Virus record (IMG/VR): IMGVR_UViG_3300049988_000286
Location: 384,001 to 448,000 of that record
Direction: 5' to 3' (one strand)
Source of the DNA: a virus
Lineage: Duplodnaviria; Caudoviricetes
Length of the DNA stretch: 64,000 bases
The notes beneath the pieces are model-generated. The model made no database searches, had not been told where the DNA came from, and saw only the letters and a program-made list of their open reading frames with translations. The translations under genes and the position numbers were made by a program. This document shows, piece after piece, positions 9,055-59,674 of the stretch (its first letter is position 1; the number at the start of each line of letters is the position of its first letter).

Positions 9055-9149
9055 TGGTACGCCCGGAGGGATTCGAACCCCCAACCGTTCCGCGATCTGC
9101 GGATCATGAGGTATAAGCTCACCGCTCTAACCAATTGAGCTACGGGCGC
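9055..9149 (-). tRNA. tRNA-Ile(UAU) with long variable arm
   Basis: Cloverleaf GCGCCCG/CGGGCGT, anticodon loop CT-TAT-AC, variable arm CCGC-AGATC-GCGG, encoded CCA. Confidence 0.85.
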
Positions 9150-9183: not shown

Positions 9184-9201
9184 TCATATCAACTGGTGCA
9201 T
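9184..9201 (-). CDS. leader minigene MHQLI (sensor codon ATA)
   Basis: TAAATA(9207-9212)+5 nt+ATG CAC CAG TTG ATA TGA, 34 nt upstream of tRNA-Ile(UAU). Confidence 0.55.
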   Translation of the reverse strand: MHQLI

Positions 9202-15819: not shown

Positions 15820-15907
15820 TGGCGGGCGAGGTGGGATTCGAACCCACGGAACCTTGCGGTTCGTCACGTTAGCAGTGTGGTGGTTTCGGCCTCTCACCCA
15901 CTCGCCC
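15820..15907 (-). tRNA. tRNA-Ser(GCU)
   Basis: Class II cloverleaf, loop CT-GCT-AA, G73, CCA; anticodon stem has 27:43 and 31:39 mismatches. Confidence 0.85.
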
Positions 15908-15922
15908 GTATTCTATAGCTGA

Positions 15923-16010
15923 TGGTGGAATCGGTGGGATTCGAACCCACGGAACCTTGCGGTTCACTCGCTTTCCAAGCGAGCCCGATCGGCCACTCTG
16001 GCACGATTCC
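15923..16010 (-). tRNA. tRNA-Ser(GGA)
   Basis: Class II cloverleaf, loop TT-GGA-AA, CCA. Confidence 0.9.
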
Positions 16011-16023
16011 ATATCAGAAACTC

Positions 16024-16113
16024 TGGAGGAGCCGACCCGATTCGAACGGGTGAGACCTTGCGGTCTGCTCGTTTTCAAGACGAGTGCGTTAAACCGGGCT
16101 CCGCCACGGCTCC
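16024..16113 (-). tRNA. tRNA-Ser(UGA)
   Basis: Class II cloverleaf, loop CT-TGA-AA, CCA. Confidence 0.9.
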
Positions 16114-16114
16114 T

Positions 16115-16483
16115 TTATGTCAGACCAAGTTCCTGCATGTCAACCGAAGGAACGGTCCAATTCTTTATCCTTTTACCCCAGATGGCCTTCATCCTCGGTA
16201 AAGTGAGGGGCTCGATCCGAAGAGCGCCGCAATCAGCACCCAAGTAGTCCGCAAGAAACTCATCTCGCGACTGGCGTAATCCTCGTGCATCACCGAAAAC
16301 ATCCTCGCCGAACATGACACCAACATGTCGCGGAACAGTGTCCCAAACATCGTCGAAGATTCCTACTAGGGTTCCGCCATGAAGATCGTGCAGCGTCGCC
16401 GCCATCACCATGCATTCACCGCGTTGATAACGCTCTAGCGCCGACCTGTCATCATCGAAAGCGTCGATCTCAAAAATTCGCAT
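16115..16483 (-). CDS. late protein with putative papain-like Cys-His-Asp triad
   Basis: TAAATA+4 nt+ATG (MRIFEID); GECMVMA...PRHVGV...FGDARG. Confidence 0.55.
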   Translation of the reverse strand: MRIFEIDAFDDDRSALERYQRGECMVMAATLHDLHGGTLVGIFDDVWDTVPRHVGVMFGEDVFGDARGLRQSRDEFLADYLGADCGALRIEPLTLPRMKAIWGKRIKNWTVPSVDMQELGLT

Positions 16484-16494
16484 CTGGTATTTAG

Positions 16495-16569
16495 TGGTGC
16501 CCTCGGAAGGAATCAAACCTTACGTTTCCGACGTACCAAGTCGGCGTTCTATCATTGAACTACGAGGGC
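16495..16569 (-). tRNA. tRNA-Thr(GGU)
   Basis: GCCCTCG/CGAGGGC, stem CCGAC/GTCGG, loop TT-GGT-AC, CCA. Confidence 0.85.
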
Positions 16570-18844: not shown

Positions 18845-18920
18845 TGGAGCCCGAGGTCGGGATTGAACCGACGACCTGTCCCTTACGAGGGGACTGCAAC
18901 TACCACTGTGCTACTCGGGC
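18845..18920 (-). tRNA. tRNA-Thr(CGU)
   Basis: GCCCGAG/CTCGGGC, loop CT-CGT-AA, CCA. Confidence 0.9.
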
Positions 18921-18969
18921 GTGTGAAGGGTTGACAGGGGCTATGCCCCTAGAAGAAAAAATCGGTGAC

Positions 18970-19045
18970 TGGCAGGAGCGCCGAGACTCGAACTCGGAAC
19001 CTACGGGATTGGAAGCCGGTGCTCTACCAATTGAGCTACACTCCT
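18970..19045 (-). tRNA. tRNA-Trp(CCA)
   Basis: AGGAGTG/CGCTCCT, G73, loop TT-CCA-AT; only 3 paired positions in the anticodon stem. Confidence 0.8.
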
Positions 19046-19052
19046 ACAGTCA

Positions 19053-19126
19053 TGGTTGGCACGGGTGGTAATGCTCCACCGTCTCGGCTTTATCAGAACC
19101 TTGCTCTACTTTTGAGCTACGCGCCA
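19053..19126 (-). tRNA. tRNA-Ile(GAU), atypical T-loop AGCATTA
   Basis: TGGCGCG/CGTGCCA, loop CT-GAT-AA, T stem GGTGG/CCACC, CCA. Confidence 0.8.
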
Positions 19127-19156
19127 TCAGTGACAGACAACCGGTCTGTCAGCGGG

Positions 19157-19232
19157 TGGTGGTGACGGCTGGGCTCGAACCAGCGACATACGCGTCATCA
19201 ACACGTCGTTCTTCCAACTGAACTACGCCACC
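19157..19232 (-). tRNA. tRNA-Ile(GAU) with G37
   Basis: GGTGGCG/CGTCACC, stem ACGTG/CGCGT, loop TT-GAT-GA, CCA. Confidence 0.85.
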
Positions 19233-19240
19233 ACATTGAG

Positions 19241-19481
19241 CGTCGCCCGAGACTCATCGACGATGTGCGCACCGCTCCCGTGGGATGTGCGATCTCGTCG
19301 GGTCGTACGTCGGGCGACGACTCCAAACTATCAATCCGGGGAAGCTGCTTCCAAGCGCGTGCTTCATGTCAAAGAGCCCCTGTGGAGGGCGCTTCGGCAG
19401 ATGTTGCTTGGAGAAGGGGACTTCAGGTGTCCCGAACCTCAACCAATACCCGCCTAGAACGGGTATGGCAAACCACCCCGC
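19241..19481 (-). ncRNA. structured RNA between leader peptide and tRNA array (attenuator platform or ncRNA)
   Basis: Hairpins at 19446-19466, 19417-19433, 19349-19414 and a 10-bp stem 19241-19250/19310-19319. Confidence 0.5.
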
Positions 19482-19535
19482 TCACCCGAAGGTGATCGAC
19501 CAACTAATCGTGGTTGAGGAGGTTGTCGTGTTCAT
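19482..19535 (-). CDS. leader peptide MNTTTSSTTISWSITFG
   Basis: 13 consecutive Thr/Ser/Ile/Trp codons matching the downstream tRNA set; ATG 5 nt after TATAAATA. Confidence 0.8.
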   Translation of the reverse strand: MNTTTSSTTISWSITFG

Positions 19536-19540
19536 GCTTT

Positions 19541-19572
19541 TATTTATACCGAAGGGGTCGCCGGGCTGTCAA
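19541..19572 (-). promoter_or_regulatory. hybrid promoter of tRNA operon (TTGACA-18-TATAAA overlapping TATAAATA)
   Basis: Read directly on minus strand; predicted +1 at or next to the leader ATG. Confidence 0.7.
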
Positions 19573-19586
19573 CACCTAAATACAGC

Positions 19587-20909
19587 ATGGCTAGAAAAAT
19601 CACCGACCTTCCGCAGTCTACCCTTTCGGCGACCGATCTCGGTGCTGCCTCCATCCCCGTTTCCAATGTGGGCAGCAACGCCTCGGTGCTGGAACGCGTG
19701 TTGGCGCGCGACTTCATGTCGTTGCTCGGTGGGAGCTATCGCGGCACGTGGAGCGCGTCGCCTTCGCGGCCGTATAACTTCGGCGACATCGTGACTGTCC
19801 TCTCAATCATCACTCCAATCTACTATGTCTGCCTTATCGCGGGCACTACCTCCAATCCCTCTGCGAACACGGGCTGGCAACTGATCAATTCCGTGGTGCG
19901 TGGTACCGATGCTGGACCACCTACAGTCGGGGTAGATGGCCAATTGATCATTCAGGATGGCTTGCTGTATTTCAATAGCAACGGCGCGCGTATTCCGCTG
20001 CTTCGTGGCGACGCCCCGCTATTGTCGAACCAGATCGCGCGTGAGCCGGGGACGATCAACATTCTGGATGATCCAACCTTCGCCAGTGGAAGCACATGGA
20101 CGGTGGTGGGTTTCAATCGGGTGGCGTCAACTAATGACTTCGGTAACGGTTTTGCCTATCAGACTAGCGGCACGGGCAGTTTCAGCCTCAAGTCGAAAAT
20201 GACCATCCCTTACACAAGCGGAGAGCAACAGTACGTACGTTATTTTATAACGAAGACCGCTGATTTCGCGGGTACGATCTCGCTCACGTACATAAAGGCT
20301 AATAAAGACGGCAGCAATGCATCAGCGCAGACGGCTGCCACGATCAACCCGACAACGCTTAATACTTTTAGCTTCGGGCTAGATACTAACTTTTCCAACT
20401 TTGGAAGTGGTAACATTACTGCTTTCGGTGTAGAGGCGACGGTTACGGCAGGATCGATCACCGTATTGAGGCTAGAATATTACAAACCTCTAAATCTCCG
20501 GTATCTACCTACGACGACATCCACGTCGGTGTTCTACTACGGTAACAGCACTTTGCTTACGCCACCGGACACGCTGATCAACGCCAGTAAACCCACTGAT
20601 ATGGGTAGTCTTTCTGGCAACATCACGCTCAACTTCTATGCCTATCGAAGTGCAAATTTCACGCTCACTGGCAACAGCACATTGGTCAATCCATCTGGCG
20701 TCGCGTTCTCCGGTTTCGGTGGACGCATCCGCATTACTCAAGACCCTGCTAACTCTGGCGCGCCTTACACTCTAGCCTATGGGTCGGCGTGGAAGTTTCC
20801 CGGCGGCGCGCCGACGCTCTCTACGACACCGGGGGCGGTTGATCTCTTGGTCTATTTCGTCAACACCGACCTGACCTTTGAGTGCACGCTCGTCAAGGAT
20901 GTGAAGTAA
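19587..20909 (+). CDS. tail fibre / receptor-binding protein
   Basis: TAAATA+4 nt+ATG; MARKITDLP start, CBM5/12-like GTWS..YNFGDIV..YVC..P..WQ, C-terminal TQD..G..TLAY..AWKFPGG.PTLST..GAVDLL. Confidence 0.7.
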   Translation: MARKITDLPQSTLSATDLGAASIPVSNVGSNASVLERVLARDFMSLLGGSYRGTWSASPSRPYNFGDIVTVLSIITPIYYVCLIAGTTSNPSANTGWQLINSVVRGTDAGPPTVGVDGQLIIQDGLLYFNSNGARIPLLRGDAPLLSNQIAREPGTINILDDPTFASGSTWTVVGFNRVASTNDFGNGFAYQTSGTGSFSLKSKMTIPYTSGEQQYVRYFITKTADFAGTISLTYIKANKDGSNASAQTAATINPTTLNTFSFGLDTNFSNFGSGNITAFGVEATVTAGSITVLRLEYYKPLNLRYLPTTTSTSVFYYGNSTLLTPPDTLINASKPTDMGSLSGNITLNFYAYRSANFTLTGNSTLVNPSGVAFSGFGGRIRITQDPANSGAPYTLAYGSAWKFPGGAPTLSTTPGAVDLLVYFVNTDLTFECTLVKDVK

Positions 20910-59098: not shown

Positions 59099-59129
59099 TT
59101 GACACCCAAAAGCTCGTGTGAGATAAATA
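59099..59129 (+). promoter_or_regulatory. hybrid promoter of Tyr/His tRNA operon
   Basis: TTGACA(59099-59104) and GATAAATA(59122-59129). Confidence 0.65.
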
Positions 59130-59134
59130 CTCCT

Positions 59135-59179
59135 ATGAACACGCAGAGCCATCACACCTATTATCATTACCACGCGTAA
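59135..59179 (+). CDS. leader peptide MNTQSHHTYYHYHA
   Basis: 7 of 8 consecutive codons His/Tyr; upstream of Tyr and His tRNAs; ATG 5 nt after TAAATA. Confidence 0.8.
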   Translation: MNTQSHHTYYHYHA

Positions 59180-59241
59180 GCGGGGTCGTGGTAACGCGTC
59201 CTCGTTTCGGGGACGATGAAGGTGTGAAAGAGCCAGCGTGG
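59167..59241 (+). promoter_or_regulatory. attenuator-like alternative RNA structures
   Basis: TTACCACG(59167-74)/CGTGGTAA(59187-94); CGTCCTC/GGGGACG(59197-59215); competing CCACGC/GCGTGG(59236-41). Confidence 0.6.
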
Positions 59242-59300
59242 CACTCTCCCCATAGTTGAACCCGCGAAGACGCAGATGATTTGCGTATCATGTTGCTAGT

Positions 59301-59384
59301 GGGTCGGCTGGACACGAGTGAGTCCACCTGACTGTAAATCAGACGCTTTGGCTGTGAGGGTGCAAATTCCTTCCCGGCCCACCA
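59301..59384 (+). tRNA. tRNA-Tyr(GUA), atypical D/T loops
   Basis: GGGTCGG/CCGGCCC, A73, loop CT-GTA-AA, V arm, CCA. Confidence 0.8.
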
Positions 59385-59409
59385 AGCAACCAAAGAACAG
59401 TGATCAGGT

Positions 59410-59483
59410 GCGGCCGAGGCTGACTTGGATGAGGCGCGCGGTTGTGATCCGCGAGATAGTGAGTTCGAACCTCACCGGTCGCC
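59410..59483 (+). tRNA. tRNA-His(GUG), no encoded G-1 or CCA
   Basis: GCGGCCG/CGGTCGC, stem CGCGG/CCGCG, loop TT-GTG-AT, canonical T arm, C73. Confidence 0.75.
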
Positions 59484-59502
59484 CCTGAACACTGTTCACC
59501 TT

Positions 59503-59596
59503 GGGAGGTGCCCCCGCTCGCCGGTTGTAACCCGGTGGTCTCTAATAAGGGTGGGAAGCATTGAGGCGATGGGTGCAATTCCTACACCTCCCACCA
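59503..59596 (+). ncRNA. D-armless tRNA-like RNA with GUA anticodon
   Basis: 8-bp acceptor GGGAGGTG/CACCTCCC, A-CCA end, anticodon arm GCCGG-TTGTAAC-CCGGT, 4-bp T stem; no D arm, 33-nt extra region. Confidence 0.65.
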
Positions 59597-59599
59597 CGT

Positions 59600-59674
59600 G
59601 GCGTTGGTAGCTCAATGGTAGAGCGCTCGATTGTGGATCGAGATACGCGGGTTCGATCCCCGTCCTTCGCCCCA
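59600..59674 (+). tRNA. tRNA-His(GUG) with G-1:C73
   Basis: G-1, GCGTTGG/CCTTCGC, loop TT-GTG-GA, CCA. Confidence 0.9.

Follow-up and report, generated by a model that had tools for sequence, protein, structure and literature searches.

We describe a family of short leader cassettes that stand in front of phage tRNA arrays. Two of them lie in the stretch of DNA analysed here (64,000 nucleotides, hereafter the window), and we consider it likely, with a probability of about 0.7, that both are ribosome-mediated, trp-style attenuators that place tRNA arrays under negative feedback by the tRNAs they encode. Each tRNA set would probably be made only while ribosomes read its codons slowly. The direct evidence lies in the sequences, in the match between leader codons and downstream tRNAs, in recurrence of the design in other phages, and in mutually exclusive folds obtained in silico.

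The virus record holding the window is 499,572 bp long and was rated complete by CheckV. It carries approximately 45 tRNA genes, clustered by amino acid, together with one tmRNA gene, and its major capsid protein is of the T4 type (Pfam Gp23, E 1e-72). Judged by its sequence, the phage is a T4-related giant (~500 kb). It is uncultivated; among sequencing runs, none of RNA was listed as containing this DNA, and the one DNA run containing all of it is a leaf metagenome, from which the DNA may come. A preliminary description of this DNA had reported a cassette shared by two long leaders, and both strings were present as described. The minus-strand copy consists of TATAAATA, 5 nt, ATGAACACG (19527-19535) opening a 17-codon ORF, TGA at 19482, and GCGGGGT; the plus-strand copy consists of GATAAATA, 5 nt, ATGAACACG (59135-59143) opening a 14-codon ORF, TAA at 59179, and GCGGGGT. 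Restriction of the cassette to these two leaders did not hold, as four further arrays in other parts of the genome (Gly/Val/Arg/Asn/Ala, Gln, Lys and Glu) have the same 5′ half ahead of them. The cassette was therefore assigned to six tRNA arrays of the genome. A seventh array (Leu/Pro) has a variant whose ORF is longer, has a Shine-Dalgarno sequence and contains a Leu/Pro run. The first window leader, that of the Ile/Trp/Thr/Ser tRNAs, has the following features.

19567-19572, minus strand: -35 hexamer TTGACA of the promoter, within TGTTGACA, which is common to all six leaders.
19541-19548, minus strand: TATAAATA, an exact match to the T4 late-promoter consensus, doubling as a sigma-70-like -10.
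19482-19535, minus strand: leader ORF MNTTTSSTTISWSITFG plus TGA; 17 codons, no Shine-Dalgarno sequence, predicted to be leaderless.
19486-19503, minus strand: best region 1, the ORF segment pairing with the post-stop segment (-17 kcal/mol).
19473-19483, minus strand: region 2, the 5′ arm of the 2:3 hairpin; it contains GCGGGGT (19475-19481), overlaps the stop codon and extends into GTGGT (19472-19476).
19457-19468, minus strand: region 3, common to the 2:3 (-15.7 kcal/mol) and 3:4 hairpins; CMYAYCCGY is kept in five related leaders.
19446-19454, minus strand: region 4, the 3′ arm of the 3:4 hairpin (19446-19466), followed by the poor U-tract TTGGTTGAGGTT.
19365-19390, minus strand: second conserved hairpin, followed by TCTTTGACATG; the stem sequence varies among phages, with the pairing kept and the tail unchanged.
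18845-19232, minus strand: first tRNA block, Ile(GAT), Ile(GAT), Trp(CCA), Thr(CGT).
15820-16569, minus strand: further tRNAs Thr(GGT), Ser(TGA), Ser(GGA) and Ser(GCT), all with codons in the leader.

The second window leader, that of the Tyr/His array, has these features.

59099-59104, plus strand: -35 hexamer TTGACA of the promoter.
59122-59129, plus strand: GATAAATA, matching 7 of the 8 positions of the T4 late consensus, with ATG 5 nt on.
59135-59179, plus strand: leader ORF MNTQSHHTYYHYHA plus TAA; 14 codons.
59167-59194, plus strand: 1:2 hairpin, in which TTACCACG (59167-59174) pairs with CGTGGTAA (59187-59194); it includes the ACCAC and GTGGT of the preliminary description.
59179-59206, plus strand: 2:3 hairpin (-15.8 kcal/mol), with GCGGGGT (59180-59186) as its 5′ arm.
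59197-59215, plus strand: 3:4 hairpin of 8 bp, which excludes 2:3; it has no U-tract and is followed by ATGAAGG.
59301-59674, plus strand: Tyr/His array with Tyr(GTA) at 59301-59384, His(GTG) at 59410-59485, a Tyr(GTA)-like RNA at ~59502-59596 and His(GTG) at 59601-59674.

The Tyr(GTA)-like RNA (~59502-59596, plus strand) has a good acceptor stem and anticodon arm, an insert of ~30 nt and no clear D arm, and it was missed by both ARAGORN and Rfam. With relaxed thresholds ARAGORN returned mostly false tRNAs and was used solely to assign anticodons at sites found by Infernal.

The leader ORFs, 14-21 codons long, lie on the same strand between promoter and tRNAs and are spelled in the amino acids of their array. 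In the Ile/Trp/Thr/Ser leader, 12 of the 14 residues after MNT are Thr, Ser, Ile or Trp (binomial P 1.2e-7), and there is a matching codon for each of the 7 distinct downstream anticodons. In the Tyr/His leader, His and Tyr make up 7 of the 11 residues after MNT (binomial P 3.5e-7), and both synonymous codons of each amino acid are used. Cognate residues were confined to frame 0. All amino acids of the downstream array were present in its own leader in 18/18 leaders; the match score over these 18 was 0.42, compared with 0.15 for permuted pairings, and none of 100,000 permutations reached the observed value (P<1e-5). Within this genome the true leader-array pairing was the best of all 5,040. 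Among sensors built on one or two amino acids, the ERER leader precedes Glu tRNAs only, DEREED precedes Asp + Glu, Glu, and KRK, written AAA/AAA, precedes Lys(TTT) only. This agreement, with related leaders differing in step with their arrays, supports the earlier suggestion of a modular element whose sensor block is rewritten for each tRNA set.

In the sensors for one or two amino acids, cognate codons alternate with Arg codons, which are always CGA or CGC (ERER, RKRKR, QRQQR, DEREED, KRK and FWRF). Such leaders were observed at 68.4 kb, 267.6 kb and 453.7 kb of the genome and at loci L016, L020, L024, L033, L069 and L072. These interleaved codons may serve to raise the G+C of region 1 or to slow down ribosomes. 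A mini-ORF, MHQLI (window 9184-9201, minus strand), begins 5 nt after TAAATA, ends in an ATA codon and lies 34 nt before tRNA-Ile(TAT), which reads ATA; from its sequence it looks like a minimal version of the leader design. Two other short ORFs behind TAAATA (genome 277190 and 310170) were examined and are not leaders.

The T4 late-promoter consensus TATAAATA occupies positions -13 to -6 (PMC1524935). With the consensus at this position and ATG 5 nt downstream of it, the A of ATG falls at +1, implying a leaderless mRNA. The geometry of the window leaders, with 5 nt from motif to ATG, fits this prediction; in this T4-lineage phage the motif is exact in the Ile/Trp/Thr/Ser leader and agrees at 7/8 positions in the Tyr/His leader. 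TAAATA occurs at 171 sites in the genome. In 102 of them an ATG follows with a spacing of exactly 4 or 5 nt, and in 92 of the 102 it opens an ORF of at least 50 aa. Because 102/171 sites have this spacing, most late genes look leaderless. TAAATA-N5-ATG, offered earlier as a family signature, is thus present in the leaders but is a generic T4-type late-promoter/leaderless module found ahead of ~100 genes.

The tRNA leaders are set apart by an added -35 element, TTGACA (within TGTTGACA), and by the start ATGAACAC (Met-Asn-Thr). A perfect TTGACA 17-20 nt upstream of TAAATA was found 7 times in the genome, and all 7 instances lie ahead of tRNA arrays or the tmRNA gene; an eighth promoter, with TTGACG, lies ahead of Glu tRNAs. 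The six leaders could be aligned over an A/T-rich stretch, TGTTGAC, ATAAATA and the start codon. Four of the six open with ATGAACACG, and the other two with ATGTCCACG and GTGACCAAT. The pattern GTTGAC-N19/20-ATAAATA-N5-RTG had 2 matches in the window and none in 100 shuffles. Such a dual-element promoter could serve both the host sigma-70 machinery early and the phage late machinery.

Several further promoters of these types were observed. The distance from TAAATA to ATG is 5 nt in all tRNA leaders and 4 nt in most protein genes, and a 440-aa gene that diverges from the leader promoter has CTAAATA-N4-ATG at window 19577-19589 (plus strand). The tmRNA gene (genome 15550-15913, outside the window) has the hybrid TTGACA + TATAAATA promoter and no leader ORF, and the Ser tRNA block has its own TTGACA promoter, also without a leader. 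TTGACA promoters are present at Cys tRNA arrays (genome 52.1 kb; L019 of G001; L023 of G003), and no Cys-coding leader was found ahead of the Cys arrays in the three phages examined.

The cassette was not restricted to this genome. Of the search signature proposed in the preliminary description, the 5′ portion (promoter and start) worked and yielded 14 new leaders, but the stop-GCGGGG portion failed: the full signature including it was found in zero other viral contigs. GCGGGGT is not a family constant, being private to the two window leaders, and related leaders read G[AG]CGGG[TA]. The pattern TTGAC-N19-21-TAAATA-N5-ATGAACAC matched 6 viral contigs, three of which had true leaders, and tRNA-guided reading of the matched viral records added a fourth leader. 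The three leader-bearing viral contigs are fragments of phages of ~400-470 kb, as estimated from CheckV completeness. In metagenomes, the same pattern matched 47 contigs, 11 of them with short leaders of the cassette design. The outside leaders fit their own tRNAs: FWRF occurs with Trp + Phe, a Val/Ile/Ala-rich leader with Val + Ile, and a Ser/Phe/Gly/Tyr-rich leader with Tyr, Phe, Ser and Gly tRNAs. Four relatives of the Ile/Trp/Thr/Ser-type leader were detected among the outside contigs, and G+C content of the leader-bearing contigs ranged from 33 to 60%.

Other searches delimited the family. In 596 Gb of cellular genomes there were 16 pattern matches, none of which was a short cognate leader before an array. 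A scan for TAAATA-N5-ATGAACAC without the -35 gave, among the matches listed, almost only chance ORFs and one further leader, L171, before His/Glu/Lys tRNAs. A search for the His-His pattern found no relatives of the Tyr/His type, and a search via TTGGTCG found no Ile/Trp/Thr/Ser-type leaders beyond L014. Searches for close relatives via neighbouring proteins gave partial matches or none, and BLAST against the GenBank phage collection detected similarity only to tRNA-Trp.

Downstream of the ORF, both window leaders can adopt alternative structures. When the free leaders were folded, the 1:2 hairpin (ORF with post-stop segment) and the 3:4 hairpin formed in both. When regions 2-4 were folded without the ORF, as if a ribosome covered it, the 2:3 hairpin formed instead (-15.7 kcal/mol for the Ile/Trp/Thr/Ser leader and -15.8 kcal/mol for the Tyr/His leader), with GCGGGGT as its 5′ arm in both leaders. 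Because 2:3 uses up the 5′ arm of 3:4, the two hairpins are mutually exclusive. In silico, region 2 begins at the stop codon or 1 nt past it in both window leaders, and the logic of a trp attenuator would account for the stop codon abutting GCGGGGT. An identical 7-mer directly after the stop has a chance of ~1e-4 per leader pair by our own estimate from base composition.

A stall was modelled by moving a 29-nt ribosome footprint codon by codon along the ORF. With the ribosome at sensor codons in mid-ORF the model gave 2:3, and with the ribosome at the last codons or the stop it gave 3:4. For the Tyr/His leader the probability of 3:4 dropped from 0.96 to 0.00; for the Ile/Trp/Thr/Ser leader the drop was from 0.91 to 0.24, and 3:4 remains at many stall positions in equilibrium folds of this leader. 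With this simple model, stall-dependent loss of the hairpin was found in ~10 of 17 modelled leaders, and five family members showed no switch. Folding z-scores were modest (-1.4 to -2.1). Both helices are kept in all five leaders of the Ile/Trp/Thr/Ser type, in which loop-side parts of the stems differ, e.g., GTGG/CCAT versus TGTG/CGCA. Alignment with MAFFT and RNAalifold, limited to five related leaders with helix registers that differ by sub-group, gave 11 pairs, 3 of which had changed on both sides.

The preliminary description had also proposed that, in each leader, an ACCAC in the ORF pairs with a GTGGT just after the stop. Both motifs are present in both leaders, but they are part of the best helix only in the Tyr/His leader, where they lie at the centre of the 8 bp that TTACCACG and CGTGGTAA form as helix 1:2. 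In the Ile/Trp/Thr/Ser leader (ACCAC at 19510-19514, GTGGT at 19472-19476), ORF segment 19486-19503 pairs with the post-stop segment better (-17 kcal/mol) than ACCAC does. Complements of 5 bp between an ORF of 40 nt and the next 16 nt are common by chance, and in the window leaders only longer duplexes exceeded shuffles (P 0.04 and 0.07). Across the six leaders, matched ORF/post-stop duplexes had a mean of -13.8 kcal/mol versus -11.5 kcal/mol for mismatched ones, and 18 of 720 permutations were as good. Shuffle P values for the duplex were ≤0.07 in four of the six leaders (<0.05 in three), and two leaders were no different from shuffles. Support for ORF-to-post-stop pairing is modest but real.

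We propose that the elements described above would work together as follows. The hybrid promoter, composed of a sigma-70-type TTGACA and the T4-late-type TATAAATA, would start the RNA at the A of ATGAACACG, yielding a leaderless transcript. A ribosome would then read the 14- or 17-codon ORF, composed mostly of codons of the tRNAs encoded downstream. When the cognate charged tRNAs are scarce, it would stall within the ORF, leaving region 2 free to pair with region 3; 3:4 would be blocked and RNA polymerase would continue into the tRNA genes. When decoding is fast, the ribosome would reach the stop and cover region 2, 3:4 would form and output would be cut. Absence of translation would allow both 1:2 and 3:4 to form, and output would be off. 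Each tRNA block would in this way be under negative feedback from its own products. In this scheme, what we infer is where transcription starts, that the ORF is translated, that ribosomes stall on it and that transcription terminates at 3:4.

The last of these steps could be replaced by another kind of output. The sensor ORF would then act as proposed, and the choice of fold would set pausing, Rho access, RNase processing or maturation of the first tRNA, rather than intrinsic termination. We regard this as unlikely but worth keeping in view, most of all for the Tyr/His leader, whose 3:4 hairpin is followed by ATGAAGG and has no U-tract; in the Ile/Trp/Thr/Ser leader the hairpin is followed by TTGGTTGAGGTT, a poor U-tract. 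Other leaders of the genome likewise have a hairpin without a U-tract, such as that of Gln, where the hairpin ends 5 nt before the tRNA. A strict scan detected no terminator in either window leader, although canonical terminators are in use elsewhere in the genome; a looser scan accepted the hairpin of the Ile/Trp/Thr/Ser leader, with 5 T in 8. With this looser scan, which was our own, a hairpin with a T-rich tail was found in 13 of 20 family members, including several textbook terminators. Textbook terminators at the equivalent place in many relatives argue for termination, and no C-rich unstructured stretch suitable for Rho loading was evident by eye. A different output would be in keeping with a second conserved hairpin and TCTTTGACATG further downstream in three arrays, and with the ability of the 5′ end of the Tyr/His leader to pair with the last 12 nt before tRNA-Tyr.

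The latter pairing joins 59135-59147 (plus strand) to 59279-59290, the last bases before tRNA-Tyr (4 + 7 bp). As judged from the sequence, full-length transcripts would thereby have the entire leader closed off and their 5′ AUG buried. A hairpin with a TCTTTGA(C/A)AT tail was also observed at genome 25427 and 350633 and at L014, L035 and L074. Its place is between the leader and the first of the tRNAs; the Leu/Pro array has it beyond a canonical terminator. Three phages show another hairpin, whose loop is CUGGGA-like, after TCTTTGA(C/A)AT; in the window this second hairpin lies ~60 nt further downstream. The TTGACA inside TCTTTGACATG was considered as a second promoter and rejected, as no -10 was seen by eye at a usable distance.

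Attenuation by a translated sensor presupposes that the ORFs are read for their codons. They might have another role, as a functional peptide or decoy substrate, the match to tRNAs being a by-product. Conservation of Met-Asn-Thr extends over phages with 33-60% G+C, with variation at the third base of the Thr codon; this is a hint that the peptide or the codon family is under selection. However, the peptides are conserved only in composition, with residue order shuffled among related leaders, and the ORFs are always found between promoter and tRNAs, adjoining the switch, which makes such a role quite improbable. Direct binding of tRNA by the leader RNA in the manner of a T-box, without translation, would follow the same logic, in which tRNA status controls genes of the translation apparatus. 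This is more improbable still, since an Rfam search found no T-box or other known leader family, even at E up to 1, and since many cognate codons share a single reading frame, between a start codon predicted to fall at +1 and a stop; no specifier loop or T-box motif was apparent. Coincidence of an ordinary late promoter with a spurious mini-ORF, which the high frequency of TAAATA-N4/5-ATG in the genome would favor, is very unlikely given the permutation and binomial statistics, and the dedicated -35, recurrence in other phages and absence from cellular genomes also speak against it.

Control of their own tRNA genes by phages is hardly known. Phage tRNAs are usually discussed as supplements to codon usage or as substitutes where host shut-off or defence systems have removed tRNAs, and full-text literature searches turned up no account of tRNA genes, or of phage tRNA arrays, under the control of a leader peptide. 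With an attenuator that senses its own tRNA output, decoding capacity would come under a direct feedback loop; we found no account of attenuation being used in this way. A wider and more tentative idea, to which we give slightly less than even odds, is that giant T4-related phages run a genome-wide, ribosome-read "tRNA-demand regulon", in which a promoter usable early as well as late drives each block and a leaderless sensor ORF lets the charged tRNAs of that block regulate it. If so, the phage could detect which host tRNA families are depleted, for instance by host shut-off or anticodon nucleases, and replace just those. As a modular family, with the same promoter and start and exchangeable sensor blocks, the leaders are easy to search for and predict which tRNAs are treated as one unit. 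The design also offers a simple basis for synthetic circuits responsive to tRNA supply.

The tRNAs of this genome have additional unusual features. Many tRNAs of amino-acid families in which the variable arm is normally short measure 84-95 nt, e.g., at window 9055-9149 and at several places elsewhere in the genome: Ile-TAT (95 nt), Met, Arg and Cys (91 nt each), Asn (87-89 nt), Gln (88 nt) and Glu (84-85 nt). They may have long variable arms or inserts. Two tRNAs with CTA anticodons (amber-suppressor type; called Pyl by ARAGORN) were found at genome 102238-102314 (plus strand) and 106351-106425 (minus strand), and a related contig (L018, G001) also has two. Some related leaders end in TAG.

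Leaderless sensor ORFs have a cellular precedent in the polycysteine short-ORF attenuators of mycobacteria (Canestrari et al., bioRxiv 10.1101/834739). As proposed for the phage, a leaderless 5′ ORF acts as sensor, a stall remodels the downstream RNA, and many loci share one design, the "ribulon" of the authors; the mycobacterial ORFs differ in that they are cellular, sense Cys only, and act at the level of translation, where they unmask a protein gene's ribosome-binding site (bioRxiv 10.1101/834739). The phage leaders have no downstream ribosome-binding site because their products are tRNAs. Their promoters share the motif of T4 late promoters, in a T4-related phage, but a consensus -35 has been added 18-19 nt upstream and an ORF placed at +1. 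To our knowledge, no leader ORFs precede the tRNA cluster of T4 itself.

T-box riboswitches bind uncharged tRNA directly and need no translation. They resemble the proposed phage system in coupling tRNA status to translation-related genes through a choice between terminator and antiterminator, but no T-box was detected in the phage leaders with Rfam. In E. coli, pheST is controlled by attenuation at the pheM leader peptide. There, too, a component of the translation machinery is under leader-peptide attenuation, although it is a tRNA synthetase rather than tRNA genes that is controlled. Together with the mycobacterial ORFs, the closest published systems are the leader-peptide attenuators of enterobacteria, such as trpL, hisL and pheL and the multivalent thr and ilvGMEDA leaders. 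Common features are a short ORF rich in regulatory codons, a stop codon adjoining region 2, mutually exclusive 1:2, 2:3 and 3:4 hairpins, and several amino acids per leader. The phage elements differ in their viral origin, predicted leaderless start and hybrid early/late promoter, and in that the 3:4 hairpins of the window have no proper U-tract. Furthermore, the phage leaders would regulate tRNAs instead of biosynthetic enzymes, so that the molecule sensed would be the product itself.
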